In this document: piece by piece, positions 36,047 through 64,000 of the stretch | Numbering within the stretch: the stretch's first letter is position 1 | Layout of the letters: every line of letters starts with the position of its first letter | Source of the DNA: an uncultured Dehalococcoidales bacterium | GTDB taxonomy: Bacteria > Chloroflexota > Dehalococcoidia > GIF9 > UBA5629 | DNA: 64,000 bases | Reading direction: 5' to 3' | NCBI GenBank assembly: GCA_964548415.1 | Contig: CAZJQG010000006.1 | Location: forward strand, 12,548 to 76,547 | The notes under the pieces: generated by a model | Told to the model about the DNA's origin: nothing | Database searches by the model: none | What the model saw: the letters and a program-made list of their open reading frames with translations, nothing else | Translations under genes and position numbers: made by a program

Positions 36047-36095
36047 TATTAGTATTTTGATATTGTTTAGTATTTAGAGTTTAGGTTTTAGGATT
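36047..36095. repeat. Right heptad array (..., TAGnnTT x4)
   Basis: The sequence tattagt attttga tattgtt tagtatt tagagtt taggttt taggatt fills the whole gap to the queF ATG. Confidence 0.6.
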
Positions 36096-42387: not shown

Positions 42388-42930
42388 GTGTTAAGTGAAG
42401 AATATTTAGTACAGCAGGCGATAAATGGTAATCAAGCGGCATTTACGCAGCTATATAACCAGAATTTTGATAGGATACATCGATATATCTTTATCAAGGT
42501 ACGAGACCGGGCTCAGGCGGAGGATTTAACACAAGATGTATTCATCAGAGCTCTGGAGTCGATTAATACCTATAAATGGCGAGACCTGCCATTTGCGGCC
42601 TGGTTATTCAAGATCGCTCATAACAGGGTAATTGACCATGTACGTAAGCAGTCGAAAGAAAAAAGGGCCCCACTCGAGGAAGCTTATGCCAGGAGCGTGG
42701 AAGACCCGATACAGATGACAGAAAGGGATTATGAGGTATATCAATTGAAGTTGGCACTTGAACAGTTACCGGAGGCGCAACGAGATGTTGCCACCCTGCG
42801 TTTTATCGGCCAGCTGTCTATAGCGGAGGTGGCCAAGACGCTCGGTAAAAGTGAAGGTACGGTCAAGGCGTTACAGTTCAATGCCACAGCTTCATTGAGG
42901 AAAGCTCTTTACGGAAAATTTGATGTCTAG
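42388..42930 (+). CDS. ECF-type RNA polymerase sigma factor
   Basis: 180 aa with sigma-70 region 2 (DLTQDVFIRALE...WLFKIAHNRVIDHVRK) and region 4 (SIAEVAKTLGKSEGTVKALQFNA). Confidence 0.9.
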   Translation: MLSEEYLVQQAINGNQAAFTQLYNQNFDRIHRYIFIKVRDRAQAEDLTQDVFIRALESINTYKWRDLPFAAWLFKIAHNRVIDHVRKQSKEKRAPLEEAYARSVEDPIQMTERDYEVYQLKLALEQLPEAQRDVATLRFIGQLSIAEVAKTLGKSEGTVKALQFNATASLRKALYGKFDV

Positions 42931-44119
42931 AAATTTAGACGATATATTCAACGAATGTTACGAGCGGATACGCTTCGGCGAAAGCCTCGAAAGCGTCCTC
43001 CGGAGCTACCCGCAGTACCGTTCACAGTTGGAACCTCTGCTCAGAACGACCTTTGATATCGGGCGCAGGGCGTCCTTTATTCAGCCTCGTCCGGAATTCA
43101 GGCACTGGGCCAGGGTGCGCTTCGAATCGGCCATGCAGTACCCGCAGCGGCAGCAGGAGCCGGTTAGAAGGGAAACCCAGGCAGCTTCCATGTGGCTGCG
43201 GCACGGCTGGGCTGTGATTGTCAGTGCTGGTATAGTGCTCATGCTAGGTGTTGGAAGCACCATGGCCGCATCGTCACAGGCCATGCCTACGGACCCTCTC
43301 TATGCGTTAAAGCCGCTCACCGAAGATGTGCAGAGAGCCTTTGCCGTATCGCCGGACCGTAAAGCTCAATTTGAAACCGACATCGCCAATATCAGGGCGG
43401 CCGAGTTACAGGCTATGGCTGATGCCGGCAATGCCCAGGAGGCGGCCAAGGCAGCCCAGAGATATGACGACCAGTTCGAAAAGGCGGTACAGGCTATTTT
43501 AGCTACAGAAGGGACTGAGCCTATAGTTACCAGGCCCCCGGTGGCCACGCCGGTGACCACGCCAACGCCGGTTACACCGACGCCTGTGGTTACTCCACCT
43601 GTCGAGGTACCCACACCTGTAGTTACAAGTACCGATAACGGTACGGCGGGTGAAAATGCAGCTACCGAGAATACAACTCAGTCCGGAACTGCCACGCCGC
43701 CTGCTGTTCCCGTAACCTCGGAAAACACCACTCCACCGGATACTCCTGCTGTAACGACAGGTACTGGGGAGCAGCCTACCGCGGTAACCGAGGAGCAACC
43801 GGCGGTAACTGAAGAGCAGCCGGCTACAACTACCTCCGGTAGTACTCAGTCTTCCAAGGCCCAGGAGTTGAGGGACAGGCTGAACCGCCAGAAATCCACA
43901 GTCGAGCAGTCCTTAAAGGACGCCCGGGAGAAGGCATCACATCAAGATAAATCGAACTGGCAGGACACCATCGACAAAGTATCGAAGAAGACTGCCACCC
44001 GGACTACGTCAGAGCAAAGCGATAGCTCCAATCAGACCACCATTCAGACGGACAACAAGACTGTACCCAATACCGGTTCGGACAAGAACAGACCTTCCTC
44101 TTCAAATCGGCATCGCTAA
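42920..44119 (+). CDS. Putative anti-sigma factor (single TM, DUF5667-like extracytoplasmic helical domain, Pro/Thr-rich linker)
   Basis: 11-nt overlap with the sigma gene. TM helix (WAVIVSAGIVLMLGVG), helical domain, then a PVTTPTPVTPTPVVTPP low-complexity stretch. Confidence 0.6.
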   Translation: MMSRNLDDIFNECYERIRFGESLESVLRSYPQYRSQLEPLLRTTFDIGRRASFIQPRPEFRHWARVRFESAMQYPQRQQEPVRRETQAASMWLRHGWAVIVSAGIVLMLGVGSTMAASSQAMPTDPLYALKPLTEDVQRAFAVSPDRKAQFETDIANIRAAELQAMADAGNAQEAAKAAQRYDDQFEKAVQAILATEGTEPIVTRPPVATPVTTPTPVTPTPVVTPPVEVPTPVVTSTDNGTAGENAATENTTQSGTATPPAVPVTSENTTPPDTPAVTTGTGEQPTAVTEEQPAVTEEQPATTTSGSTQSSKAQELRDRLNRQKSTVEQSLKDAREKASHQDKSNWQDTIDKVSKKTATRTTSEQSDSSNQTTIQTDNKTVPNTGSDKNRPSSSNRHR

Positions 44120-44209
44120 GGATATGCCACCCGCCCAGTAGACCATCACGCCATTATCTCTATAGTGGGGATATTTTTTATCCCCTATTAAAAGTGGCTG
44201 CCAAACCCA

Positions 44210-44237
44210 TTGACAAAGGTCCATTAGCTGTTATAAT
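44210..44237 (+). promoter_or_regulatory. Promoter of paralog 1
   Basis: CCATTGACA-16 nt-TGtTATAAT (extended -10). Confidence 0.55.
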
Positions 44238-44306
44238 GCCATAAGTCCCTTTGCACACGCGCCTTTAGCGCGCGCAATAAATCCTAGAAAGGAATTAATC
44301 ACCGTC

Positions 44307-46442
44307 ATGGCAGCAAAAAGAAAACTCATAGCGCTTACAACCATAATTTTACTGACATTAATGGTAATACCTTTTTCATTGGTTAATACTGTTAGAGCCG
44401 ATTCACTTCAGTCCGACGTCTGGGTATCACCCGCTCCGCTGGGCAGTGACAGCAATCCGGGTACGAAAGCCCAGCCCTTCGCCACCATCCAGTATGGCAT
44501 CGACCATGTAGCGTCGCAAGGCACGGTGCATATCGCACCTGGCACCTATAAGGAAAACCTGATGATAACAAGCGATGTTTGGCTGGAAGGCGCCGACGCT
44601 CGTTCCACCATTGTCGATGGTGGTGGTTTAGGTACGGTAATCGTCACCGCCGCTGGAAACGAATATATAATATCCGGGCTTACCATCCAGAACGGATTGG
44701 GCTCGGTAACTACGGACGCGAATAACAATCAGTTGCCGTATGCCGGCATGAACCTGCCGTTTTCTCAGCAGTCACCGCAACAAATCCCGGTGATAGGTGC
44801 AGGCGGTGGCATTTTTATCGCTGAAGACAGCTTGGTCGACATATTTCAATGTGTCATAAAGAACAACGAGGCCTACGTTGGCGGCGGCGTCTGTAATACG
44901 GGTATTCTGTTCATGGGAGCCTGCACAGTCAGCGGCAACACCGCCTATGGTGGTGGCGCCGGCATCTTCAACGCCATACCGTTTGATGGAACCGGCGTCC
45001 GGGAAAACCAGATTGGAGGCATAGCATTTATTTTTGAATGCACTGTAAGCGGCAACACGATTCCCGCTAATACGGAGGTACCCGCTGTCGGAGCCGGCAT
45101 CCTTAACGATGGCGAGATGCTGGTATTTGACTGCACGATAGCCCACAACACAGCGGTTAATCCCGATACGTATGGCGGTGGATTCTATAATGCGATTGAA
45201 GCTTATTTTGGGGGTACGATCGTAGCCAATAATACGGCCGGTACCGGAAACAATGGTTACAATGCGGAAGGGGAGATAATTTCGGGGGGATATAACCTCG
45301 ACAGCGAGGATAGCTGCGGCTTCGATGAAGAAACTGACCTGGTAAATACTGATCCCGTACTTGGTCCGCTTCAGGACAACGGCGGACCTACTCCCACCCA
45401 TGCTCTACATCACGGCAGTCCGGCGATTGATAGCGAATCGTGCTTGCTTACCTTTTTCTTCTTTCTAGGGGCGCAGGCACAGGGACTCGTCAGCCCCGGA
45501 GAGGTTAGTGCCTTAGAGAATAAAGTAAATGAGTTCTTCCCCGAGAACACGGACCAACGCGGCGTTCCGCGACCGCAGGGCGAAGACTGCGATAGAGGTG
45601 CCTATGAGCTGGCTCAGGCTTCCGTAGCATCGGCGACAAATCAAGGAACCGTGTATTTTTCTACCGTTAACGGATACATAACCGACCTGACTGCACTGAG
45701 CGAATCGGAAACTGGATGCGGACCAAACGCTAATTTTAACTTCCCTTACGGTCTGTTCTCCTTCAACGTAACCGATATAACTCCCGGCTCCACAGCCACT
45801 ATCGTCATCATATTGCCGGGAAACGTCCCCACCGGCACGCAGTACTGGAAGTGCCTTAACGGCGGTTGGGTAAATTGCAGCTCGCTGCTGGGAAGCAATG
45901 ACGGCGATAGCGTGCTGACGTTAACCATCACCGATGGCAGTTTGGGCGACCGGGACAATTCCGCTAACGGTACCATATCCGACCCGGGAGGCCCGGTCTG
46001 GTTCGGAGCGCCGTCGGAACTCAAGGTTTCCCCGGCAATGTCGCGCCCGCTTAACGCTTCCCAGATGTCGGTTCAATACCTTAGCGTTAACCCTCGGCAG
46101 GCAGCCAATAACAGCCCCGTAACCATTTCCGCCAACGTAGTCAACACCGGCGACCAGGGTGGGAATATGAGCGTTGCTTTAAAGATTAACGGCGTGGTGG
46201 AACAGACCAGGATGGTCAGCGTCGGCCCACAGGCCTCCCAGCCGATAAAATTCACCGTATCCAGGTCTGAGCCCGGCACTTATTCCATCGATATTGGCGG
46301 CCAGACCGGCAGCTTCACCATACCTGATAAACAGACCGCAAACAACCCGCCTGTTAACTGGACCATGATTGCCTTCCTGATTATGGCTGTCCTGGCCATA
46401 GCCGTTGCCATGGTACTGATTCTTCACCGAAGGTCTGCCTGA
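44307..46442 (+). CDS. Secreted beta-helix/CARDB surface protein, paralog 1 of 5 (longest; extra inserted domain)
   Basis: Signal peptide. N-module [29 protein letters not shown]...GTVHIAPGTYKENL. PbH1-like turns (CTVSGNT). [16 protein letters not shown]...[17 protein letters not shown] module. About 170-aa insert. CARDB-like domain. TM plus HRRSA end. Confidence 0.85.
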   Translation: MAAKRKLIALTTIILLTLMVIPFSLVNTVRADSLQSDVWVSPAPLGSDSNPGTKAQPFATIQYGIDHVASQGTVHIAPGTYKENLMITSDVWLEGADARSTIVDGGGLGTVIVTAAGNEYIISGLTIQNGLGSVTTDANNNQLPYAGMNLPFSQQSPQQIPVIGAGGGIFIAEDSLVDIFQCVIKNNEAYVGGGVCNTGILFMGACTVSGNTAYGGGAGIFNAIPFDGTGVRENQIGGIAFIFECTVSGNTIPANTEVPAVGAGILNDGEMLVFDCTIAHNTAVNPDTYGGGFYNAIEAYFGGTIVANNTAGTGNNGYNAEGEIISGGYNLDSEDSCGFDEETDLVNTDPVLGPLQDNGGPTPTHALHHGSPAIDSESCLLTFFFFLGAQAQGLVSPGEVSALENKVNEFFPENTDQRGVPRPQGEDCDRGAYELAQASVASATNQGTVYFSTVNGYITDLTALSESETGCGPNANFNFPYGLFSFNVTDITPGSTATIVIILPGNVPTGTQYWKCLNGGWVNCSSLLGSNDGDSVLTLTITDGSLGDRDNSANGTISDPGGPVWFGAPSELKVSPAMSRPLNASQMSVQYLSVNPRQAANNSPVTISANVVNTGDQGGNMSVALKINGVVEQTRMVSVGPQASQPIKFTVSRSEPGTYSIDIGGQTGSFTIPDKQTANNPPVNWTMIAFLIMAVLAIAVAMVLILHRRSA

Positions 46443-46465
46443 AAAAAGCTCCACGGATGAACCGG

Positions 46466-46493
46466 AAGGGGACACGCATGGTGTCCCCTTTCT
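46466..46493 (+). terminator. Rho-independent terminator after paralog 1
   Basis: AAGGGGACAC-gcatg-GTGTCCCCTT followed by a T-rich stretch. Confidence 0.7.
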
Positions 46494-46528
46494 CGTCCCT
46501 ATATATCTGGCGGGCACGCTGCTACCCA

Positions 46529-46556
46529 TTGACAAGCTAAAGCATCCTGATATAAT
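46529..46556 (+). promoter_or_regulatory. Promoter of paralog 2
   Basis: CCATTGACAAG-...-ATCCTGaTATAAT, with a 16-nt spacer and an extended -10. Confidence 0.6.
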
Positions 46557-46620
46557 TCGTTAAGGACAATCACGGACTACCGCGTGGAAAAGCGGCAATA
46601 TACAGCTTAGGAGGTCTATC

Positions 46621-48372
46621 ATGGTCAAGGCGAATCGAATCATCTTGGTAGTAGCAGTTCTTTTGTTAGTGGCGCTTGCAATCCCGCTTTCACTATCAAA
46701 TTCTGCAGGGGCAAATAACTGCCCATCCAGCGTTTACGTGGCACCGCCGCCGTTCGGCGACGACGCCAATCCCGGCACCCAAGCTCAACCCTTCGCCACC
46801 ATCCAGCAGGGGATAGATGTAGTATGTGATGAAGGGACGGTGTACGTGGCGGCTGGTACGTACTTTGAGCATCTATCTATCAACTTCGCGGTCAACCTGG
46901 TTGGCGCCGGTGCCCCGGTCACTATTATCGATGGTGGGGCCATTGCTACCAATATCGCGATTGGCGGCTCGGTAATTACCATATCCAGCGCACCCGATGA
47001 GGTAAACGTAATCTCCGGCTTCACCATTCAGAATGGTAACGCAGTGCTCACACCCCTGAACCCCGGTACAGAGCAGGTACTTTATGCCGGAATTAAATTG
47101 CCTTCTATCCAGAGGTTGCCACAGTTGATAGACGACGGATCTGATTGCGGCGGCGGAATTTTTATATATGACACCCATATCGTAACTCTCAATGATTGTA
47201 CCATCAGAAATAATACGGCTTTCGACGGCGGAGGTATATGTAACCATGGCCAGCTGACCATGAACCGGTGCACCGTCAGCGGCAACAAAGCTTTATTCTC
47301 CGGCGGCGGCATATATAACGAAGTTGGTTTCATGCCGGATACCGGAGTTATGACGCTGACGAACTGCACTATCAGCGGAAACCAGGCCTTGGGAGCCCTA
47401 CCCCTGGGCACCGATGCGGCCCCAGAGCCGAGAATGGCCTTAGGAGGCGGCATATTTAATGGCACAAACGCCACTATGCACCTGTTGAACGTAACCATAG
47501 CTAACAATTCCGCGCTCGGTTCATCTTCCCATGGTGGCGGTTTTGCCAACGGATCTTTGCGCACCGGTTATTTTAAAAATACCATCGTGGCTAACAATGT
47601 TGCCGGCGACGGCGTCACCAATAACGGGTACGATATTGGATTCGGCACCGGGATTCACTCACTGGGCCATAACCTTGATAGCGAGAACACCTGTGGTTTC
47701 GACCAGCCTACAGATCTGATTAATACCAACCCGCTGCTCGGCCCGCTCCAGGACAACGGCGGACCCACCTTTACTTGCGCACTGCTCGAGGGCAGCCCCG
47801 CTATTGACGCAGGTGATGACGCCGGAGCTCCAGCCACCGACCAGCGCGGCGTTACCAGGCCCCAGGGCGCACACGTCGATATCGGCGCTTATGAGTTCGT
47901 ACCGGTAGTAACACCAGAAGCAGGCGGGCCCGCCCAGTTTAACGTCTCCCCTTCCAATCCTAATAACTGGACCAGAAACCTCAATCCGCCCACTATGTCA
48001 GTGGCCTTCGTCAGCGTTAATCCACAGCAGGCAGTGGCCGATCAACCGGTCACCATCTCAACTAACGTGGTCAACACCGGCGACCAGGGCGGCAACATGA
48101 GCGTCGCACTTAAGATTAACGGCATAGTGGAACAAACCAGGATGGTCAGCGTCGGTCCTCAGGCTTCCCAGCCCATTAAATTTACTGTAACCAAGGCTCA
48201 ACCGGGCACTTACGCCATAGATATCGGCGGCCAGACCGGAAGCTTCACCATACCTGATGCACAGGCTGCAAATAGGCTGTCAATTAACTGGACGATGATT
48301 ATACTTCTCATTATGGCCGTCCTGGCGATAGCCATAGTAATGGTCTTGATGCTTAACCGCCGTTCGGCTTAA
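46621..48372 (+). CDS. Secreted beta-helix/CARDB surface protein, paralog 2
   Basis: Same architecture as paralog 1: signal peptide ending ..[56 protein letters not shown] turns, [28 protein letters not shown]...[24 protein letters not shown]-like domain, TM plus NRRSA. Confidence 0.88.
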
Positions 48373-48392
48373 AATCAGCTCTGTAACAATCA

Positions 48393-48427
48393 AAAAGGGG
48401 ACTTTACACTGGAGTCCCCTTTTTTAT
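48393..48427 (+). terminator. Rho-independent terminator after paralog 2
   Basis: GGGGACT-9 nt loop-AGTCCCC followed by TTTTTTATTTTT. Confidence 0.7.
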
Positions 48428-48463
48428 TTTTCGAAAACTTCAAAATAGTTGACAGCCGGGCTA

Positions 48464-48491
48464 TTGACAAACTGACACCGGATGTTATACT
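48464..48491 (+). promoter_or_regulatory. Promoter of paralog 3
   Basis: TTGACA-16 nt-TGtTATACT. A second TTGACA lies at 48449-48454. Confidence 0.5.
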
Positions 48492-48560
48492 GGTTTCCGA
48501 CATCTATTAACTTTGCGCCTATAGGGCCGAAGGAGAAGTCCCCAAACACGGAGGTTAGCA

Positions 48561-50303
48561 ATGATTAAAGCAGGCAAAGCGTTCTCTCTCACGACAGTCC
48601 TACTATTGCTGGTACTGGCACTGGCTTTATCGCCTTCATATGTATCGGCTAATAGCTGCCAGAGCGAAGTATATGTGGCTCCGCCACCGGTGGGCAATGA
48701 CGCCAATCCCGGCACCCAAGCTCAACCCTTCGCCACCATCCAGCACGGGATAGATATGGTCTGCGACGATGGCACCGTCTTCGTGGCTAACGGAACTTAC
48801 CATGAAAATCTTGAAATCTGTAAGAGTTTGACCATGATCGGTGCCGGCGCACCGACAACCATCATTGACGGTGGAGGAATCGGACGCGTCATCCACATTG
48901 ATGGCTGTCCGGGCAATGAATCAGAGCAAGGAATTAACACCGCTGCCCAAAGCAATGTAATTTCTAACTTTACCATCCAGAACGGTCGCATAAATTGGGG
49001 ATGCTCAGGAATGCCGGTGGGAGGCGGCGTCTACGTGACCATGGGACACATTGTCACCATGAATGACTGCACCATAAAGAACAATGTGGCCGAGTTCCTG
49101 GGAGGGGGCATATACAATGCCGGGCAAATGGCGCTAAACAGGTGTACGGTGAGTGGTAACTCTGCCGGCATGGTCGGCGGCGGCATTGCTAACTTTTGGG
49201 ACGAACCGATACTGGACAGCGACGGCACCATGTCGTTGACCAACTGCACCATCTACGGGAACAATGTTTTTCAGGCAGAGCCAGCAGGCGCTGCGCCCGA
49301 ATTTGCTGTATCCCTGGCACTGGGTGGGGGTGTATACAATGGCGGCAACGCCAGCTTTTTGAATGTGACCATAGCTAACAACACTATATCCCAAATCACT
49401 GTAGACGGTAATCCCGCACCTGAAATTCTGAGTCTCCCAGTACCTCATGGTGGCGGCTTCGCCAACGTACCACTTCAGTGCGAGCAGGATAACGGACCTA
49501 TTGTTCATACGCCTGTGGCGACTTTCAAAAATACAATTGTGGCCAATAATACCCCTGAAAACGGTTATAGCAGCGGCGGAATCGTTATTTCGGAGGGCCA
49601 TAACCTTGATAGCGAGAACACCTGTGGTTTCGACCAGCCTACAGATCTGATTAATACCAACCCGCTGCTCGGCCCGCTCCAGGACAACGGCGGACCCACC
49701 TTTACTTGCGCACTGCTCGAGGGCAGCCCCGCTATTGACGCAGGTGATGACGCCGGAGCTCCAGCCACCGACCAGCGCGGCGTTACCAGGCCCCAGGGCG
49801 CACACGTCGATATCGGCGCTTATGAGTTCGTACCGGTAGTAACACCAGAAGCAGGCGGGCCCGCCCAGTTTAACGTCTCCCCTTCCAATCCTAATAACTG
49901 GACCAGAAACCTCAATCCGCCCACTATGTCAGTGGCCTTTGTCAGCGTCAATCCTCAACAGGCAGTGGCCAATCAGCCAGTTACCATCTCCACAAACGTG
50001 GTCAATACAGGCGACCAGGGCGGCAACATGAGCGTCGCCCTTAAGGTCAACGGCGTCGTAGAGCAGACCAGGATGGTCAGCGTCGGCCCTCAGGCCTCCC
50101 AGCCCATTAAATTCACCGTAGCCAGGTCCGAGCCCGGCACCTATGCCATTGATATCGGCGGCCAGACCGGCAGCTTCACCGTACCGGCGACACGGGCCAG
50201 CCGTAGCCTGCCAGTAAACTGGAACATGATTGCCTTCATCCTCATGGCATTGCTGGCGTTCGCCATCGCCATGATACTAATTTTCAACCGAAGGTCTACC
50301 TGA
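48561..50303 (+). CDS. Secreted beta-helix/CARDB surface protein, paralog 3
   Basis: Same architecture as paralog 2. 345 nt are identical to paralog 2 and the 3' part is near-identical to paralog 4. Ends NRRST. Confidence 0.88.
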
Positions 50304-50324
50304 AATTATCTAGACAGCCAGTCA

Positions 50325-50356
50325 AAGGGGGGCAAGTAGTACCCCCCTTTTCTTTT
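50325..50356 (+). terminator. Rho-independent terminator after paralog 3
   Basis: AAGGGGGG-9 nt loop-CCCCCCTT followed by TTCTTTTCT. Confidence 0.7.
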
Positions 50357-50386
50357 CTCCAGATTCAGCCTGACTGCGCCCTGCCA

Positions 50387-50414
50387 TTGACAAGACTAAC
50401 TATCCTGATATAAT
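50387..50414 (+). promoter_or_regulatory. Promoter of paralog 4
   Basis: CCATTGACAAG-...-ATCCTGaTATAATTCGTTA, nearly identical to the paralog 2 promoter. Confidence 0.6.
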
Positions 50415-50486
50415 TCGTTACGGATACTATTGGGTTCAATGAAGGGACAGCCTCTACGAGAGTGAGGCGCAACTTAGGAGGTCACT

Positions 50487-52217
50487 ATGGTTAAGACTGT
50501 CAAAGCATGTTCGGTGGTGGTAGTCATGTTGCTGGCAGTTCTGGGGGTGTTTCTTGCACCAGCGCACGTTGTCGGAAATGCGTGCTCTGCAGATGTCTGG
50601 GTGGCTCCCCCGCCATTTGGTAATGATGCCAATCCCGGCGCTCAAACCCAGCCTTTCGCTACCATCCAGAAAGGTATCGATACGGTATGCTGGAATGGCA
50701 CTGTACACGTAGCTGCCGGCACTTACCATGAGAGCCTGCATATTTACGATTCACAGAATTTGTTGGGCGCCGGAGCCCCGACGACAATTATCGAGGGAAA
50801 TGGTGGCACAGTTATCAAAATCATAAGCGCACCTAATTCTACAAACAACATCTCCGGTTTCACCATAAAAAATGGTAACCTAGTATCGAGCTTCTGGGAC
50901 CCGGCTGCAGAACGAGTCCTTTATGCCGGTGTCAAATTACCATCCATAGAGCGGTTACCGCAACTATTCGACATTAGCTACCTCTACGGTGGCGGCATAG
51001 AAATCGGCGATACACATATCGTCACCATCAACGACTGCGTTATCAAGGACAACGAAGCTTCTTATGGTGGCGGTGTCTACAACGAAGGACAGCTTTACAT
51101 GAACCGATGTACCGTGAGCAACAACCGTGTTCAGTTTGATGGAGGCGGCATTCATAATTATTATGCTGGCGTTTATGCCGATAGCGGCAGGATGTGGCTG
51201 ACCAACTGTACAATAAGCAATAACAGCTGTACCACGAACAATTTCGGTAGCCTTGGGAAAGAATTTGCATTTGCCCGAATCTGCTATGCCACAGCTGTAC
51301 TTCAAGGTGGCGGTATTTTCAGTAACGGCACCATGGAGCTGCTTAACTGTACTATCACCAACAACTCGGCTGAAGACTACGGCGGAGGATTTGTCAATAG
51401 CTCACCGGATACAGCCATATTCAAAAACACAATAGTGGCTAATAACACTGCCGGTGACACCAGCACCAACAATTGTTCCAATAGGCCGGGGGCTGTAATC
51501 ACCTCTCTGGGTCATAACCTGGACAGCGAGAATACCTGCCATTTCAACCAGCCTACCGATCTGATAAATACCAACCCGCTTCTCGGCCCACTTCGTGACA
51601 ACGGCGGCCCCACGTTTACCTGCGCACTGCTCGTCGGCAGCCCAGCCATTGACGCCGGCGACGACAGCGGCGCACCGGCCACCGACCAGCGCGGCGTCAG
51701 CAGGCCCCAGGGCGCACACGTCGACATCGGCGCTTTCGAATTGGTCCTTGTAGAAACCCCTGAACTAGGCGGGCCCGCTCACCCGAACGTTTCCCCGCCC
51801 TCTACTAATAACTGGACGCGAAACCTGAGCCCGGCCACGATGTCAGTGGCCTTTGTCAGCGTCAATCCTCAACAGGCAGTGGCCAATCAGCCAGTTACCA
51901 TCTCCACAAACGTGGTCAATACCGGCGACCAGGGCGGCAACATGACCGTCGCCCTTAAGGTCAACGGCGTCGTAGAGCAGACCAGGATGGTCAGCGTGGG
52001 CCCTCAGGCCTCCCAGCCGATTAAATTCACCGTGGCCAGGTCACAACCCGGCACTTATGCAATCGATATCGGCGGCCAGACAGGCAGCTTCATCATACCC
52101 GGTAGCCAGAGCAACCAGGCCGCTCCTATGAATACAGGCATGATTATCTTGCTGGTTATAGCAGTCCTGGCAGTTGCTGTTGTAATGGCCCTGCTGCTAA
52201 GCCGCCGCTCGGCTTAA
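50487..52217 (+). CDS. Secreted beta-helix/CARDB surface protein, paralog 4
   Basis: Same architecture as the other paralogs. Ends SRRSA. Confidence 0.88.
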
Positions 52218-52241
52218 GATCGAATAAACCGCAAGAAAACA

Positions 52242-52272
52242 GGGGGGCGCCGGTCGCGCCCCCTTCCTTTTT
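52242..52272 (+). terminator. Rho-independent terminator after paralog 4
   Basis: GGGGGCGC-cggtc-GCGCCCCC followed by TTCCTTTTT. Confidence 0.7.
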
Positions 52273-52309
52273 CCACATATGGCTCCGATATTCCATTGCA
52301 GGCAATCCA

Positions 52310-52337
52310 TTGACAAGTCAGGCTATCCTGATATAAT
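52310..52337 (+). promoter_or_regulatory. Promoter of paralog 5
   Basis: CCATTGACAAG-...-ATCCTGaTATAAT with a 16-nt spacer. Confidence 0.6.
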
Positions 52338-52411
52338 GGCCTGGAACAATTCTAAACCCAATTCGTAGCCTACGGGAAAGGAGGCTGATTCTTTAGCTCA
52401 GGAGGTCGGTT

Positions 52412-53992
52412 ATGGTTAGAACAGGTAAAATTGTCTCGATTTTCGCGATTCTGTTAGTGGTAGTGCTGGCGGTGTCTGCGGCGCCGGCAAACGTGTCAGG
52501 CACTTGCGACACCGATGTATGGGTGGCTCCGCCGCCACTGGGCAACGACGCCAATCCAGGAACTCAGTCACAGCCTTTTGAGCATATCCAGACAGGTATC
52601 AATAACGTATGCACAGATGGCACGGTACATGTGGCCGCAGGTACCTACCATGAAAACCTTTTCATATCTGGTGCCACGAACCTAACCGGTGCCGGCGCCC
52701 ACAATACAATCATTGACGGAGGCAGCACCGGCACAGTTATCAACATCTCCAGCGGACCCGTCACAAACATGATTTCCGGGTTTACAATCCAGAATGGCGC
52801 CCCCTTTGGCTCGTATCCCGGTGGTGGTATTTATACAGATGGAATGCATATCGTCACCCTTAACGACTGCGTCATCAAGGACAACCAAGCCGATTACGGC
52901 GGCGGCATATATAACCTGGGTCAGCTTTACATGAACCGATGTACCGTCAGCGGTAACTCGGCTGTTTACGGTGGCGGTGGCATATACAACACCCCGGGCG
53001 GAATTGGAGACAGCGGACAGGCATGGCTGGACAACTGCACCATCAGCGGCAACAAGGTGACCGAATTCGACTTCAGCGGCGGAGGCGGTATTTATAACTA
53101 TAACGGCACTATAGAACTGCTCAATTGTACCATCGCCTACAATTCCACGAGCAGCTTTAGCGGTACAGTTGGTGGTGGATTCTATAACTATTCCAGTGAT
53201 ACTATGTACTTTAAAAACACCATAGTGGCAAATAACACCGCTGGCAACGACCTATACAACAACGGTCACTCCTCACCGGCGGAAGCGACCGTATCTCAGG
53301 GCTACAATCTGGACAGCGAGAACAGCTGTGGCTTCGACCAGCCCACTGACAAGATTAACACCGACCCTCTGCTCGGTCCGCTCCAAGATAACGGCGGCCC
53401 TACCTTCACCCATGCACTGATGCACGGCAGCCCAGCCATAGACAACGGCGGAGACCCGGGCATTACTGACCAGCGCGGCGTACCAAGACCACAGGGGCCG
53501 GCCTTCGACATCGGCGCCTACGAACTGGAACAGGCCGAAGTAGCCCCACCTGTAGGAACTCAAATCAATGTGTCACCCACCAATCCCAACAACTGGACAC
53601 GCCTGAACCCGCCCACCATGTCGGTGGCCTTTGTCAGCGTTAACCCCCAGCAGGCCGTGGCCAATCAACCCGTCACCATCTCGACCAACGTGGTCAACAC
53701 CGGCGACCAGGGGGGTAACATGAGCGTCGCGCTCAAGATCAACGGGCAGGTGGCCGAGACCAGAATGGTAAGCGTGGGACCTCAAACTTCCCAGCCCATT
53801 AAATTCACCGTAACCAGAGCCCAGCCGGGAACGTACGCCATAGATATCGGCGGCCAGACCGGCAGCTTCACAATACCCGATAACCGTTCGGCATCTGCTC
53901 CGATGAACAGGAACGTGGTCATTCTTATCGCTATTGGAGTGCTGGCATTCATCTCGGCCATGATATTTATACTCAGCCGGCGCCCGGCATAA
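52412..53992 (+). CDS. Secreted beta-helix/CARDB surface protein, paralog 5 (shortest)
   Basis: Same architecture as the other paralogs. Ends SRRPA. Confidence 0.88.
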
Positions 53993-54014
53993 GCTGAATC
54001 GCTAACGCTAGATA

Positions 54015-54045
54015 AAGGGAGCATCGTCGATGCTCCCTTTTTTTG
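54015..54045 (+). terminator. Rho-independent terminator after paralog 5
   Basis: GGGAGCAT-cgtcg-ATGCTCCC followed by TTTTTTTG. Confidence 0.7.
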
Positions 54046-54260
54046 ATGTCTGCCAGGTACTTTGGTACAGCAGTATACTTTAGTACACACAGTTTTCGTC
54101 GAGCCCGGCCTGAAGCTGCCGTGAGCCTGAAATACTCCTTTTTCTACGTGTAAACCTGCATTTTTCGCTATAAACCTTTGTCTATCCCCTCCGTTATTTA
54201 TAAGCACAGAACGGAAATTTTAATCCGTTCCGTAATCCACTAAAGGAGGGTTTAAAAAAG

Positions 54261-56132
54261 ATGAACAAGTGGATCATGCCGGTGATGATAGCCATCGTCG
54301 CCCTGCTGATGCCGGTATCAACGGCAAGTGTCAGCGCCCAGGACGGAACTGGTCTGAGCATCAGCAAATCGGCCGCGCCGACTGTGGCTGCAGTAGGTGA
54401 TACCATCACGTACACCTACGCCATCACCAACACCGACAACGTCACTATTAGCGGCATCAACCTGCAGGACGATTTACTGGGGGCAATCGACCTGGGCGGC
54501 CAGACCAGCCTTGATGCCGGCGGTACTATCACCGCTGCGGCAACCTACACCGTAGTCGCGGCAGACTTACCGGGCCCGCTGGTGAATACGGCGACCGTCT
54601 CCGGCGCCGACCCGGACGGTAACGCCGTCACTGCCAGTACTTCAGCCACTGTCGAATTAAGCTATACCGCTTCGTTACAGCTAACGAAGGTCGCCCAACC
54701 GGCCACGGCCGCAGTTGGCGATAGCATCGATTATACCTTTACCATCGCCAACAACGGACCGGTGACCGTCTCCGACATCACCCTGACGGACGACCAACTC
54801 GGCACCATCGACCTGGGCGGACAGACCAGCCTGACTGCAGACGGAACGATCACGGCGACAGCAACCTATACCGTTGTAGAAGCTGACCTGCCGGGGCCGA
54901 TTACCAACACTGCTACGGTTTCCGGCACCGACCCTGACGGCAACCCGGTTAGCATCAGTGCTACCGCCACGGTTGGGCTTAACTACGAAGCTTTGCTTCA
55001 GCTCAATAAGGTCGCCCAGCCGGCCTCGGCGACCGTAGGTGACAACATTAGTTACACTTACACCATTACCAATAACGGGCCGGTCACTATAAGCGGCATC
55101 GCCTTACAGGACGACTTACTGGGAGCCATAGATCTCGGCGGACTGACCAGCCTTAATGCCGGTGCCAGTGCCTCCGCTTCGGCAACGTATACTGTAGTAG
55201 AAGCCGACCTGCCGGGTCCTATCGTCAATACTGCTACCGTTTCCGGCACCGACCCCAACGGCAACTCAATCACTGCCAGTGCCACAGCTACTGTAGAACT
55301 GACCGGCAACGCCTCCCTTGAGGTTATCAAAAGCGCCGACAGAGATACGGCCTCGCCACGGCAGACCATAAATTACTCTTATACGGTTGCCAATAATGGA
55401 AACATAACCATAAACGATCTGTCGCTTAGCGATGATAAGCTGGGGGCTCTTTCGTTGAGCGCGAATACGCTGGCTCCCGGCGAGAGCGCTACTGCAACTG
55501 CCAACTACGCGGTCACTATAGCTGACTTACCCGGTCCTATCGTGAACACGGCCACTGCAGAAGGCACTGGTTCGGATGGTCAGTCTATTTCAGCTACCAG
55601 TTCCCAGGTCTCCGTCTCCCTGTCCGTGAACAGATGGGAACTGTTCAAAGCCGAGATACTGAAATTGATGGGAGTGCCCGGTAAAGGTATCGACCACGCT
55701 CCAGGCCTTCAAAAACCTTTCAACCCGAAATCTCAGGCCGCCGAGCATGCCGGCCCAAAGAACACCTCACAGCAGCCTGACTCCGATGAGCCCGAACAAT
55801 TTCAAATAAACCAGAATGAAGACAACGAGGGTGCAGAGGAGCAGCTTCAGATAAGACAGGAGACACAGAACCAGGGCACCGGCAGGCAGCTTCAGCTAAG
55901 AGAAGAGACACAGAACCAGGGCACCGGGGAGCAACTGCAGGTGACCAACGAGGTACAAAATCAGTCTGAGAATGGCCCGGTTATACATAATAATGACGAA
56001 GACAACACTGGAAAGGGCCAGCTAAATAACAACGGAGACACAGATAACCAAACCGGCGGACAGGTAAATCCGGGCAACGGCCACCAATCGGACAAGGACA
56101 AAAAGAATAACAAGTCCCAGTCGGGGAGATAG
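54261..56132 (+). CDS. DUF11-type 'conserved repeat domain' surface protein with Gln/Asn/Glu-rich C-terminal tail
   Basis: Signal peptide, then five units of about 95 aa (..K.A.PA.A.VGD.I.YTYTITN.G.VTIS.I.L.DD.LG.IDLGG...PGPI.NTATVSGTDPDGN..). The tail is a low-complexity Q/N/E/G stretch with no C-terminal TM. Confidence 0.85.
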   Translation: MNKWIMPVMIAIVALLMPVSTASVSAQDGTGLSISKSAAPTVAAVGDTITYTYAITNTDNVTISGINLQDDLLGAIDLGGQTSLDAGGTITAAATYTVVAADLPGPLVNTATVSGADPDGNAVTASTSATVELSYTASLQLTKVAQPATAAVGDSIDYTFTIANNGPVTVSDITLTDDQLGTIDLGGQTSLTADGTITATATYTVVEADLPGPITNTATVSGTDPDGNPVSISATATVGLNYEALLQLNKVAQPASATVGDNISYTYTITNNGPVTISGIALQDDLLGAIDLGGLTSLNAGASASASATYTVVEADLPGPIVNTATVSGTDPNGNSITASATATVELTGNASLEVIKSADRDTASPRQTINYSYTVANNGNITINDLSLSDDKLGALSLSANTLAPGESATATANYAVTIADLPGPIVNTATAEGTGSDGQSISATSSQVSVSLSVNRWELFKAEILKLMGVPGKGIDHAPGLQKPFNPKSQAAEHAGPKNTSQQPDSDEPEQFQINQNEDNEGAEEQLQIRQETQNQGTGRQLQLREETQNQGTGEQLQVTNEVQNQSENGPVIHNNDEDNTGKGQLNNNGDTDNQTGGQVNPGNGHQSDKDKKNNKSQSGR

Positions 56133-56154
56133 CTAACTGGAATTAGCTTCGTTA

Positions 56155-56190
56155 AAGAGGGCGGCCAATGGGCCGCCCTCTACTTTTTGT
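56155..56190. terminator. Bidirectional terminator between convergent genes
   Basis: GAGGGCGGCC-aatg-GGCCGCCCTC flanked by an A-run and a T-run. Confidence 0.7.
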
Positions 56191-56211
56191 CCGTTATAGT
56201 GGATCGTTTTA

Positions 56212-57930
56212 CTATTTTCTATTTTTAGTGTGCAGGTATTCCTCGTATTCCACCATTTTGATCAGCACCCTGGCGGCATGCCTGCCCGAGGGATAAGCAT
56301 AATGGGTACCCTCAAGGCGAGGCTGGTCCGAAGTGAAAAAGGTAGTAGTCAGCACCGGCTTCTTATAGCTGGCCACCCACTGCTCGGCCATCGCCACCAG
56401 AAAATGCGCGGAGGCCTGGTCAGGGGTCGGCACTTCCTTTATGCCCACTTCGGCCAGAGCCGCAGAGCCGGGCGGCAGAAAGGCGCTGATAAGGTATGGA
56501 ATTCTGAGGCGGCCGGAGACGATGGCGGCGGCGATTATCTCTGTCACATCGTTCACATCTTCATCCTGATAAATGCCCATTCTCGAAGCCATCAACGAAA
56601 CGACAGGACGCACCGTATTGCCTATTTTTACGGTATCTTTGGCCAGCAAGGCCGCCGTGAACTCCTGGGCTATAGCATGAAAGACTTCGCGATTGGACAG
56701 CCAGGGAGCTTGCTCCCCGGATTCTCTGGAAACAAATAGCGATGTATAAATCGAAAAGCCGCTGAAACCCATAAAAATCAAAGAATCGATCTCGTCCACC
56801 TTTAGCAGCTTTCCTGGAGCCGTAAGATACGTAAGTAAGTTCCTGTCACCAGCCGGGTCGACGGGGTTGCCGTGGCTCCACCGTGGTGGAAACACCTTAT
56901 TCAGAGCAGCGATTACCCGGTCCGGCAGTTTGACTACATCCAGTCCCTCGGTGGCACAGGCTTCGGCGCAGAGAATGCCGTAGCTGCCGCCGGGAGTCAG
57001 TATGGCCACGTTTCTGCCTTTAGGCAGCGGCTGGGTTAAAAATCCGATGGCTACGTCCAGCAGCTCTTCCGGGCTTTCCACACGGACAGCACCGATTTCC
57101 TTAAACGCAGCTTCATAAGCCTCATCCGAGCCGGCCAGCGCTCCTGAATGCGAGGTGATGGCCTTAGCAGCCGCGTCCGTTTTGCCGGGCTTTAGCACGA
57201 TGACCGGCTTGGTCTGCGTGACTTTCTCTACCTTTTCCATGAACCGTCGACCGTCTACCAGGCCTTCGATATAAGCCAGTATCACCTTGACCTCGGGGTC
57301 CTGCCCGAAATATTCGATATAGTCCTCAATCTGTATATCCGCAGCGCACCCGCAACTTACGTAGCGATGGAAGCCCACTCCCCGCATAAATCCGGAAGTA
57401 ACAACTGCACCGCCGACATTTCCGCCTTGAGAAACAAAAGCCAGCGGTCCGTCCTTAACCGGCAGTGGAAACATAAATCCCCTTAAATCGGAAGAAGCGC
57501 TCCAGTAGCCCATGCAGTTGGGGCCGATAAAGTGGATATTGCCTCTGCGGGCGATGCTCAGCACCTCGTCCTGCAGCTTCTTGCCTTCTTTTCCGATTTC
57601 GGCAAAGCCGGCTGAAATAATAACTGCCGCCTTAACACCTTTGGCCACGCAATCCTCCATCACCGAAGCCACTACGGTGGAGGGGACGACGACAATGACC
57701 ATGTCGACCGGGTCCGGTATGTTGCTGACACGGGCATAAGCCTTATGCCCCAGGACTTCGCTTTCTCTGTTATTCACCGGATACACCGGCCCCTTGAAGC
57801 CATTAAGCGCGCTGGTAAATGAAGAATACCCCCACTTATTCCAGTTGCTGGTGGCGCCCACGACGGCCACGGACCTGGGATTGAATAAGGAGTCCAGCTC
57901 TTCGACTATATTTTGAACCATCAATGTCAC
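56212..57930 (-). CDS. CoA-binding acyl-CoA synthetase (ADP-forming, alpha-type) family protein
   Basis: N-terminal CoA-binding Rossmann fold (PRSVAVVGATSN..WGY) and succinyl-CoA-ligase-like flavodoxin domains (VSQGGNVG, SHSGALAG). No ATP-grasp part is evident. Confidence 0.75.
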   Translation of the reverse strand: MTLMVQNIVEELDSLFNPRSVAVVGATSNWNKWGYSSFTSALNGFKGPVYPVNNRESEVLGHKAYARVSNIPDPVDMVIVVVPSTVVASVMEDCVAKGVKAAVIISAGFAEIGKEGKKLQDEVLSIARRGNIHFIGPNCMGYWSASSDLRGFMFPLPVKDGPLAFVSQGGNVGGAVVTSGFMRGVGFHRYVSCGCAADIQIEDYIEYFGQDPEVKVILAYIEGLVDGRRFMEKVEKVTQTKPVIVLKPGKTDAAAKAITSHSGALAGSDEAYEAAFKEIGAVRVESPEELLDVAIGFLTQPLPKGRNVAILTPGGSYGILCAEACATEGLDVVKLPDRVIAALNKVFPPRWSHGNPVDPAGDRNLLTYLTAPGKLLKVDEIDSLIFMGFSGFSIYTSLFVSRESGEQAPWLSNREVFHAIAQEFTAALLAKDTVKIGNTVRPVVSLMASRMGIYQDEDVNDVTEIIAAAIVSGRLRIPYLISAFLPPGSAALAEVGIKEVPTPDQASAHFLVAMAEQWVASYKKPVLTTTFFTSDQPRLEGTHYAYPSGRHAARVLIKMVEYEEYLHTKNRK

Positions 57931-59473: not shown

Positions 59474-59589
59474 GTCTGAGGGTAGGCTAGAGCATCTGCT
59501 CCAGCCACAGTAAGGCAGTACAAATATAATCCGTAGAGCGGATGCTCCACGGTACCCGAGTATCCAATCTATCGAATTTATAGCTTAGA

Positions 59590-59625
59590 ATTTTGATATT
59601 GTTTAGGATTTAGAGCTTTGTATTT
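59590..59625. repeat. Solo heptad array related to right flank of the four-helix-bundle cassette
   Basis: 59590-59615 matches 36054-36079 at 25 of 26 nt (attttgatattgtttagKatttagag). Confidence 0.6.
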
Positions 59626-61233: not shown

Positions 61234-61295
61234 CACATTTTGTGATCCCACTCCCCTCACCTAGATTGATTGATCCGCGTTTCGATATGAATTTG

Positions 61296-61330
61296 TTTAG
61301 GATTTAGGAATTCTGATTTAGGATTTCAGT
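61296..61330. repeat. Heptad array (TTTAGGA)n
   Basis: tttagga tttagga attctga tttagga tttcagt. Confidence 0.6.
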
Positions 61331-62182: not shown

Positions 62183-62243
62183 AGGAAGAACAACCTGTAT
62201 TTTTGACGTTTAACGTGAACCTTTGACCTTTGGTTTTTAACTT

Positions 62244-63053
62244 TTAACTTTCGTTGGGGTGTCTCTTCAGAAAATCCAGTATTGCCTTGACCGCATCCGG
62301 CGACTGCGTAAAAGCATGGCCGGCGTTTTTCACCATAACCAGCTCGGCGCCCGGTATTCGTGAAGCTATAATCTTCGAGTTTTCAGGCGGAATCAGCCTG
62401 TCGGAATCTCCGGCGATAACCAGCGTCGGCACCTTTATCTGGGGAAGCCGGTCGCAGGTGTCGTGTCCGGCGATGGCGCTGCCGTGTCCGGCAAAACCCT
62501 GTGGCGGCGTGGGATACTCAGAGGTGACTTTTACCAGCGTCTCGACTGCCTGCGGATGGCTGTCGATGTAGTCCTGCGTCCATATCCAAGGCGCCGTAGC
62601 CCTGGCGCGTTCCTCCACGGAAAACTTGGCCGCGTCCGGATTGAACAGAAACGCCAGCGCCTCAGGCGTGGGTATGACCGATGTTTTGCCGCCGCAGTTG
62701 GAGCAGCCGACTATGAGGTTGAGTACACTATCCGGATAATCGAGGGCAAACTCCTGTGAAATCATGCCGCCCATGGAAACACCGAAAACATTGGCCTTAT
62801 CCAGGCCAATGGCATCCAGCAGACCTTTAGCATCGGCAGCAAACATCTTCATTGAATAAGGAGGTTCCGGCTTATCCGTCCTGCCGGTGCCGCGGTTATC
62901 GAAGATAATGGCGCGGTAATATTTGGCCATCTCGGGAACCAGCGTGAACCAGTGGCCGGAATTGAAGCTGTAGCCCTGTATCATCAGCAGCGGCTCGCCC
63001 TCCCCGTGTATTTCGTAGTAAATATTTATATCGTTAGCTTTCACCGTAGGCAT
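62244..63053 (-). CDS. Alpha/beta hydrolase
   Basis: 269 aa. Nucleophile elbow GVSMGG, C-terminal GDSDRLIP and NAGHA motifs. Confidence 0.88.
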   Translation of the reverse strand: MPTVKANDINIYYEIHGEGEPLLMIQGYSFNSGHWFTLVPEMAKYYRAIIFDNRGTGRTDKPEPPYSMKMFAADAKGLLDAIGLDKANVFGVSMGGMISQEFALDYPDSVLNLIVGCSNCGGKTSVIPTPEALAFLFNPDAAKFSVEERARATAPWIWTQDYIDSHPQAVETLVKVTSEYPTPPQGFAGHGSAIAGHDTCDRLPQIKVPTLVIAGDSDRLIPPENSKIIASRIPGAELVMVKNAGHAFTQSPDAVKAILDFLKRHPNES

Positions 63054-63305: not shown

Positions 63306-63485
63306 GTGCTGTTTATCCCGCTCATCCTGAGCTTGTCGAAGGACGAATCTTCTCCCTTAGGAAAAGGGAGACTGAGAAGGATTTTAGAAGAGTTAAATGT
63401 TAAAGATTAAGAATAAAATGTTCGCGCAAGGGTGAAAAGTATTTTTGACGTTTAACTTGAACTTCTGATTTTTGGCTTTTAACTT

Positions 63486-64000
63486 TTAACTTTTTCTGTC
63501 CGGGTGTCTCTTCAAAAACCCCAGTATGGCGGTAATGGACTCCCGTGCGGCATCGCCGAAGAAGCCGTGTCCCGAGTTTTTCAGCATCACCAGCTCGGCG
63601 CCGGGTATCCTGTAAGCTATAATCTTCGAGTTTTCCGCCGGTATTATCCTGTCGGAATCCCCGGCAATTACCAGGGTAGGCGCCTTGATTTGAGGCAGCC
63701 GGTCATAGGTATCTATGGTCCTGATTACACCTGCCTGGCAGGCATAGCCACGGGTCGGTGTTGGATATTTAGCTGTAGTCTCCACGTACAGGTCGACCGC
63801 CCTCGGATGTTTATCGATGAACTCCTGGTTCCACAGCCAGGGCGCTGTCTTTCTGGCCCGTTCCTCGACAGGAAGTTTGGCCATCTCTACGCCGAAGAGA
63901 AATTCCAGTTGTTCTTTGCTCTGCTTTATCGCGTGCTTGCCGCCGCATTCGGTGCAGCCCAGTATCAGGCTGATGACCCTATCAGGATAGTTAAGGACAA
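63486..64000 (-). CDS. Alpha/beta hydrolase paralog (C-terminal part; continues beyond window end)
   Basis: The frame stays open upstream of the track's ATG (63884) to the window edge (..VLNYPDRVISLILGCTECGGKHAIKQSKEQLEFLFGVEMAKLP..). It is collinear with 62244..63053, including GDSDRIIP and NSGHG. Confidence 0.8.
   Translation of the reverse strand, partial: VLNYPDRVISLILGCTECGGKHAIKQSKEQLEFLFGVEMAKLPVEERARKTAPWLWNQEFIDKHPRAVDLYVETTAKYPTPTRGYACQAGVIRTIDTYDRLPQIKAPTLVIAGDSDRIIPAENSKIIAYRIPGAELVMLKNSGHGFFGDAARESITAILGFLKRHPDRKS

Follow-up and report, generated by a model that had tools for sequence, protein, structure and literature searches.

Gene conversion between paralogs is known from several systems with which a tandem gene array described here can be compared. 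The opa genes of Neisseria form a surface family with partial concerted evolution and chimaeras, and in pilE/pilS, vlsE and msp2 antigenic variation arises by gene conversion from cassettes. Ectopic gene conversion and concerted evolution in bacteria, with tufA/tufB of Salmonella and Escherichia coli and the ribosomal RNA (rRNA) operons as examples, are reportedly treated in a 2005 review by Santoyo and Romero. Partial concerted evolution and chimaera formation were also documented in a cell-surface gene family of yeast, the FLO adhesins (PMC3512402), and in M. genitalium the mgpB/C genes, together with MgPar, undergo cassette antigenic variation by gene conversion (PMC2169797). Here, we analysed 64,000 nucleotides (nt) of an uncultured Dehalococcoidales bacterium (GenBank assembly GCA_964548415.1, contig CAZJQG010000006.1, positions 12,548 to 76,547 of the forward strand), hereafter the window, whose positions are used throughout. 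The window carries an array of five tandem paralogs on the same strand (44307-53992), named p1 to p5 in their order, and a tract of 345 nt is identical in p2 and p3. In our reading, to which we give a probability of roughly 85%, these two adjacent genes underwent a recent ectopic gene conversion within the chromosome, which left this identity as its footprint.

Results

Direct comparison of p2 (46621-48372, + strand, 583 residues) and p3 (48561-50303, + strand, 580 residues) revealed that positions 47664-48008 equal positions 49595-49939 at 345 of 345 nt, with an offset of 1931, and that the match cannot be extended by even one base at either edge. This tract is the longest exact repeat within the five-gene array, and no other direct-repeat family at 100% identity was found in the 64-kb window. 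With the offset kept, p2 and p3 differ at 40 positions in the 60 nt on the left side of the tract and at 75 positions in the 345 nt on its right side, the first mismatch on the 3′ side being C (48009) versus T (49940). The tract encodes residues 348-463 of p2 and 345-460 of p3, and at the protein level it spans the last rung of a beta-helix, a choice-of-anchor Q domain (370-426), which lies wholly within it, a disordered linker (429-453) and the first strand of a CARDB domain. Its left edge is the start of nucleotide homology among all paralogs (GGNCAYAAC..., encoding GHNLDSE), where the divergent beta-helix head gives way to the conserved GHNLDSE motif, and this position fits a homology-dependent process that was unable to enter the diverged head. 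The right edge lies inside homologous sequence, at the CARDB start. Note that a preliminary description of this sequence had already reported the base-for-base identity, the C/T mismatch and an upstream sequence unrelated in detail, all of which were reproduced here with no mismatch in the tract, and that its account of the encoded protein (end of the beta-helix, linker and start of CARDB) was essentially right.

The codon alignment of the five paralogs displayed a sharply mosaic identity profile, in which p2 and p3 are 38-76% identical over most of the head, 100% identical in the tract and 56-93% identical after it. A perfect run of 345 nt has a chance probability of ~ 6e-31 if the identity is set at 81.7% (the value between p2/p3 and p4 in the tract) and of ~ 7e-23 at 86.3% (the value between p2 and p3 just downstream). 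Using a permutation test of the Sawyer/GENECONV type (880 polymorphic ungapped columns of this alignment, 10,000 permutations), the longest concordant run of the p2-p3 pair comprised 159 polymorphic sites, the longest produced by permutation being 24 (P<1e-4), and the runs of p3-p4 and p4-p5 reached 33 sites (P<1e-4) and 18 sites (global P = 0.004 with all columns permuted), respectively. Synonymous divergence, estimated by region with the Nei-Gojobori method as the proportion of differing synonymous sites (pS) or as the corrected distance (dS), followed the same mosaic. In the head module, all pairs are saturated (pS 0.71-0.80, with 0.76 for p2-p3). In the tract, none of the 84.7 synonymous sites differs between p2 and p3, compared with a dS of 0.70 between p2/p3 and p4 and of 2.3 between p2/p3 and p5. 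In the next 180 nt, dS is 0.74 for p2-p3 and 0.10 for p3-p4, and in the tail it ranges from 0.5 to 1.8 among all pairs (~ 1.2 for both p2-p3 and p3-p4). Provided that the assembly is correct, the true p2-p3 divergence in the tract has a 95% upper bound of 0.9% over all sites and 3.5% over synonymous sites.

Conservation by selection was considered with the same data. Indeed, p4 differs from the tract at 63 of the 345 sites, and p4, p5 and p1 each depart from it at 63 or more sites, mostly synonymous ones. Since these three paralogs are free to vary synonymously in the tract, the identity cannot be explained by constraints acting on the protein, codon usage or a nucleic-acid element. Chance and protein-level selection are thus excluded as its cause. 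The preliminary description had proposed an identity profile and a GENECONV-type test, and it had taken the lack of synonymous differences inside otherwise diverged genes as a sign of recombination rather than of selection on the protein; the zero synonymous differences stand between a pS of 0.76 upstream and a dS of 0.74 downstream, and its interpretation is supported by this synonymous identity, by the permutation result and by the phylogenetic incongruence described below.

The map of variable sites further resolved p3 into a four-part mosaic composed of its own head (to 49594), the p2-identical tract (49595-49939), a p4-like tract (49926 to ~ 50121) and its own tail. The p3-p4 tract (49926-50121 in p3 and 51840-52035 in p4, both on the + strand) includes exact blocks of 83 and 51 nt, carries the 33 concordant sites given above and shows 5 differences in 182 nt, versus 25-28 differences to p2 (dS of 0.10 versus 0.74-0.86 for comparisons with p2). 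It starts within the last 14 nt of the p2/p3 tract, and p3 switches from p2-like to p4-like within a 14-nt stretch, ATGTCAGTGGCCTT, that is common to all three genes. The p2/p3 tract is the younger of the two (0/345 versus 5/182 differences, Fisher P = 0.005), and the p2-p4 distance is alike in both segments (dS of 0.70 and 0.86). The likelier recipient is probably p3, with p2 as donor (~ 60:40 over the reverse direction), because p3 is the mosaic gene, in which a p4-like older tract was apparently overwritten on its left by a p2-type tract.

Shorter exact matches were also found in the heads. The 47-mer shared by the 5′ modules of p2 (46762-46808, + strand) and p3 (48699-48745, + strand), which had been noticed in the preliminary description, is indeed exact, with an offset of 1937; it comprises 21 concordant sites (global P = 2e-4 when the head columns alone are permuted), and p4, p5 and p1 differ at synonymous sites within it. 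A block of 26 nt in the p4 head (51090-51115, + strand) equals 52922-52947 in p5, with 18 concordant sites and a global P of 8e-4 under the same permutation of head columns. These matches suggest occasional micro-conversions at conserved motifs, probable for the 47-mer and possible for the 26-mer. The 345-nt event is therefore one in a series, besides the older p3-p4 tract and these two short tracts.

In order to place the array among its relatives, protein search hits were split at the GHNLDSE motif, and heads and 3′ parts were compared separately. At the amino acid level, the p3 head shares 60-70% identity with those of P0002-P0010, the p2 head 65% with those of P0012 and P0014, and the p4 head 69% with that of P0015, and nucleotide identity is 64-67% between the p3 head and those of loci L015, L017b and L022 and 64-66% between the p2 head and those of L019 and L020. 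The p2 and p3 heads, for their part, are only 56% identical to each other in both amino acid and nucleotide comparisons. In the tract region, p2 and p3 are 100% identical, their identity to p4 is 82%, and that to any other genome is at most 73%. Phylogenetic incongruence was thus found, with heads grouping orthologs and the tract grouping paralogs within the genome. The heads represent old types, and other genomes hold their orthologs.

The homogenization of the 3′ half is not restricted to the window. The window paralogs are 69-100% identical in their R and C parts versus 50-62% in the N module. Within L017, which holds two paralogs at the syntenic site, the N module is 58% identical, and the tract and CARDB/tail regions are 89-90% identical with an exact block of 97 nt. 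Within L024, adjacent genes of p4 type and p2 type are 92.9% identical over their last 435 nt. Concerted evolution of the 3′ half is therefore seen in the window array, in L017 and in L024, and the 3′ parts group by genome in three related arrays too. The comparisons indicate a domain-restricted concerted evolution, in which the 3′ half evolves in concert within genomes, with the 5′ heads persisting as distinct types. The syntenic site holds a single paralog in L015 and in L022 and a pair in L017; L018 plus L024 have at least three, and the window has five. The array is a tandem family that expands and contracts. It was also observed that the order of head types is p3, p4 and p2 in L018 plus L024 versus p2, p3 and p4 in the window. 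The genes flanking the site are constant across the relatives, with those for an extracytoplasmic function (ECF) sigma factor and a DUF5667 protein on the left and a CoA ligase gene on the right (42388-57930 in the window), and L015 has no DUF11/CLIPPER gene. A scan of species-representative genomes with p2 returned only distant beta-helix proteins of Planctomycetota and Verrucomicrobiota and no close genome.

Independent assemblies provided evidence on the repeat itself. Parts of the array also occur in public contigs built from six or more other samples with several assemblers, and apart from L025 all of them are 100% identical to the window, so that the population is nearly clonal. L025 (ENA ERZ27245614) is a strain variant with two single-nucleotide polymorphisms (SNPs) in 8,038 nt, which starts in p4 and stops short of the tract; both SNPs (window positions 52539 and 53676) lie in p5 and are non-synonymous (L to Q, T to I). 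The MEGAHIT contig L006 covers the p2 copy of the tract (47664-48008, + strand, the probable donor) completely, together with unique p2 sequence to its left and right, and breaks off 119 nt inside the p3 copy (49595-49939, + strand, the probable recipient), so that these first 119 nt are tied to p3-specific upstream sequence. At the other end, L007 and L008 begin 127 and 99 nt, respectively, before the end of the p3 copy, and each runs into p3-specific downstream sequence. Values of 119, 127 and 99 are standard k values of assemblers. Contig breaks at these k-mer lengths mean that independent graphs branch exactly at the tract boundaries of the window; the repeat is real and its boundaries are confirmed by independent short-read assemblies.

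Another contig, L014 (ENA ERZ27247969 k141_193878, 1934 nt), joins window positions 48834-49594 to 47664-48836, that is, p3 head, tract, p2 tail, intergenic region and p3 start, and closes on itself with a period of 1,931. It is the loop that such a repeat is expected to leave in a de Bruijn graph, and it may be either such a graph artefact or a genuine variant of the array that arose by amplification or excision. The protein P0001, 94% identical to p3, was considered as a divergent p3 allele and rejected as such: it is the chimeric product of L014, with the p3 head, the tract and the p2 tail.

The five paralogs share one layout, with an N-terminal signal peptide, a DUF1565/right-handed beta-helix module, the choice-of-anchor Q domain, the linker, a CARDB-like domain and a C-terminal hydrophobic helix followed by RRSA, RRST or RRPA (a transmembrane helix followed by RRSA in p2). 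They are accordingly predicted to be membrane-anchored beta-helix/CARDB surface proteins. Besides p2 and the mosaic p3, the array comprises p1 (44307-46442, 711 residues), p4 (50487-52217, 576 residues) and p5 (52412-53992, 526 residues), all on the + strand. The choice-of-anchor Q model NF041518 scored 102.9 bits in p2, 103.7 in p3 and 75.7 in p1 (NCBIfam cut-off 25), and DUF1565 scored 37 bits in p2 (cut-off 20.3). CARDB (PF07705) scores ranged from 18.7 to 24.1 bits around the Pfam gathering threshold of 22.7, with p5 alone above it. The AlphaFold2 model of p2 (mean predicted local distance difference test score of 76) displays a beta-helix from 37 to ~ 350, a low-confidence part at 350-430, the disordered linker at 429-453, a confident beta-sandwich at 459-544 and a helix at 557-578. 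Its top Foldseek matches were rhombotarget A (9cdu/9cdv) and the CARDB domain of PF1109 (3idu), and the sandwich compared with the latter gave a target-normalised template modelling score of 0.71. Named homologs of the array proteins come from metagenome-assembled genomes of Chloroflexi and Dehalococcoidia, and literature searches for choice-of-anchor Q, or for Dehalococcoidia with CARDB, returned nothing relevant. We also observed that p1 is the outlier among the paralogs: its residues 474-564 form an additional choice-of-anchor U domain, and its choice-of-anchor Q domain is split by a hydrophobic insertion, SCLLTFFFFLGAQAQ...

Upstream of p2, a predicted promoter of the form TTGACA-16-TATAAT with TG (46529-46556, + strand) matches the consensus at 12 of 12 positions, as do those of p1 (44210-44237), p4 (50387-50414) and p5 (52310-52337), and that of p3 (48464-48491) matches at 11 of 12. 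These predicted sigma-70 promoters, one for each paralog, are thus near perfect and have an extended -10 element. A terminator hairpin lies 5′ of each promoter, and an AGGAGG ribosome-binding site is found at every paralog. With its own terminator, promoter and ribosome-binding site, each paralog appears to form an independent and complete transcription unit, and not a silent cassette. Directly upstream of the array lies an ECF sigma/anti-sigma-like pair, composed of the ECF sigma factor (42388-42930, + strand) and the DUF5667 protein (42920-44119, + strand), an arrangement that is syntenic in related genomes; no obvious ECF-type promoter was seen at any paralog. The right flank carries a gene for a DUF7507/DUF11 (CLIPPER) repeat surface protein (54261-56132, + strand) and an ADP-forming acetyl-CoA synthetase gene.

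Elsewhere in the window, short AT-rich intergenic repeats recur upstream of several genes, namely TTAGTATTTTGATATTGTTTAGGATTTAGAG... and GTATTTTTGACGTTTAAC...TTTTAACTTTTAACTTT, at 36049-36089, 59585-59625 and 61279-61319 and at 62197-62251 and 63439-63493; they may represent an element that these genes have in common for regulation or in their promoter regions. In addition, 62317-62462 and 63568-63713 are adjacent paralogous segments (81% identity over 146 nt, spacing 1,251), at the place of two tandem alpha/beta-hydrolase genes in the L011 annotation.

Discussion

Our results point to a recent gene conversion between p2 and p3, for which the recombination pathway, the non-reciprocity and the direction from p2 to p3 are what we infer from the footprint. 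In the proposed course of events, p3 and p4 would first have shared a tract that reached further to the left. A break or gap in one copy would then have been repaired by RecA-type homologous recombination on the neighbouring copy, 1,931 bp away, through heteroduplex formation and mismatch repair or through synthesis-dependent strand annealing; alternatively, template switching during replication would produce an identical footprint. In this way, about 345 nt would have been overwritten and the donor left unchanged, so that p2 sequence would later have replaced that of p3 from the head/stalk junction to 49939, its leftward spread being halted at the diverged head module, where the homology between paralogs ends. 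A series of such events would homogenize the 3′ half (stalk and anchor) within each genome and leave the 5′ heads distinct.

Several points weigh against this reading. The central ~ 99 nt of the p3 copy have no link to p3-specific flanks in the independent contigs. Assemblers merge bubbles between near-identical paths, and such bubble-popping in short-read assemblies could hide a few SNPs, in which case the zero differences may in fact be very few. An exact-protein look-up found the complete p3 protein in no other public assembly, and a metagenome scan with p3 gave six loci with at most 72% protein identity and no pre-conversion allele of the same species. As to the direction, the boundary between the p2/p3 and p3/p4 tracts coincides with the linker/CARDB junction, which, for reasons of homology, might be a natural stop for independent tracts.

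The first of these points lead to the possibility of an assembly artefact, in which two similar copies were collapsed to one consensus that was used twice, or p3 was mis-threaded through p2. The public contigs that reach the tract are all de Bruijn assemblies and all break inside it, a chimeric loop contig (L014) exists, and the full p3 protein is the one missing from other assemblies, as would be seen after such an error. For two tandem copies, however, the graph has just one linear path in which no edge is left unused, and this path is the order of the window, so that a swap of flanks is of no concern. Furthermore, L006 spans the p2 copy, independent contigs tie the tract to p3-specific flanks over 119 nt at its start and 127 nt at its end, and the four representations of the tract (two in the window, one in L006 and one in L014) are all identical. 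The same assemblies also kept the neighbouring p3/p4 tract distinct, which is merely 2.7% divergent. Even with a few hidden central SNPs, the two copies of the tract would agree at ~ 98% of their positions or more, and the conclusion of gene conversion would stand. The two copies are thus identical or nearly so, the limits of the assembly touch only the claim of exactly zero differences, and we regard an artefact as very improbable.

Reciprocal exchange offers another account, in which p3 (or p2) is a hybrid born from unequal crossing-over or segmental duplication and the tract is its remnant. Unequal exchange does occur in the array, since copy number (1-5) and gene order vary among the relatives; p3 combines p2-like with p4-like segments, and the L014 loop could be a real copy-number variant. 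Nevertheless, a single unequal crossover gives identity up to the end of the duplicated unit and not a 345-nt island in diverged flanks, which here are saturated at synonymous sites upstream and have a dS of 0.74 downstream. Two crossovers 345 nt apart would be operationally the same as a conversion, and both heads have separate old orthologs elsewhere. Taken together, these observations leave little room for a purely reciprocal origin. Finally, selection at the nucleotide level, whereby an RNA or DNA element or an overlapping gene would forbid change in both copies, can be dismissed as next to impossible: antisense open reading frames do overlap the tract mechanically (49134-49805, 223 residues), but the homologous stretch of p4, p5 and p1 has accumulated its 63 or more differences, the orthologs in other genomes reach no more than 73% identity, no Rfam match was found in the tract (a scan of 42-57 kb gave one sub-threshold chance match outside genes), and an element required in exactly two of five copies is ad hoc.

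Gene conversion between p2 and p3 being the preferred explanation, its confinement to the 3′ half may be understood in two ways. In a neutral account, the heads may have diverged below the identity required for recombination; in a selective account, the stalk and anchor may have to match a shared partner, or head diversity may be protected. It is conceivable, if rather unlikely, that the array works as a system of constant stalk and interchangeable heads, in which conversion of the 3′ half is selected to keep the heads compatible with a shared envelope partner, the array changes copy number by unequal exchange, and the 1,931-bp loop is a real product of amplification or excision. If this were true, the constant-stalk array would be a natural model for modular cell-surface evolution in the wall-less Dehalococcoidia.

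Altogether, the locus provides a very clean and statistically unambiguous case of ectopic gene conversion in an uncultivated environmental bacterium, with three tract ages in one gene (dS of 0, 0.10 and 0.70). It illustrates that homogenization can end right at the junction between two domains, so that a surface protein evolves in concert within a genome in one half and retains ancient orthologous types in the other. It should also be noticed that such arrays break short-read assemblies and yield loop contigs and chimeric database proteins, P0001 being an example.

Two other mechanisms that produce related repeats were considered and rejected. Cassette-based antigenic or phase variation does not apply, since all five paralogs are complete open reading frames with their own promoter, and the mismatch pattern does not fit the template repeat/variable repeat pair of a diversity-generating retroelement, as the p2/p3 pair has no differences and the p3/p4 differences are not adenine-specific.

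When compared to the described systems, the array recalls the tuf and rRNA paralogs, with which it shares non-allelic tracts on one chromosome that lack synonymous divergence and are bounded by more diverged sequence, as well as paralogs that cluster by genome and not by orthology. In contrast to them, the array is homogenized only in its 3′ half (stalk and anchor), with a 5′ half of ancient distinct types, and its genes are adjacent tandem copies whose number varies between relatives. With FLO and opa, it has in common that ectopic recombination between surface paralogs makes mosaic genes, conserved segments serving as substrates; unlike in those families, there is no sign of shuffling of the variable heads in the array, and the host is an environmental bacterium rather than a pathogen or a yeast. 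The cassette systems rely on short unidirectional conversion tracts between repeated surface-protein sequences of one genome, such as we propose for the array, but they combine one expression site with silent, promoterless and partial cassettes and convert the variable region, whereas the five genes of the array appear complete, with consensus promoter, ribosome-binding site, signal peptide and terminator, and it is the conserved segment that is converted. At the protein level, p2 resembles in its model rhombotarget A (9cdu/9cdv) and the choice-of-anchor Q/DUF1565/CARDB surface proteins, with a beta-helix followed by a CARDB-like sandwich, and differs in its anchor, which is a plain C-terminal transmembrane helix followed by RRSA/RRST/RRPA in the array and not GlyGly-CTERM or another recognised sorting signal. 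The array is, in this comparison, a case of classical bacterial ectopic gene conversion and concerted evolution, an ordinary and well-known process that calls for no new mechanism.

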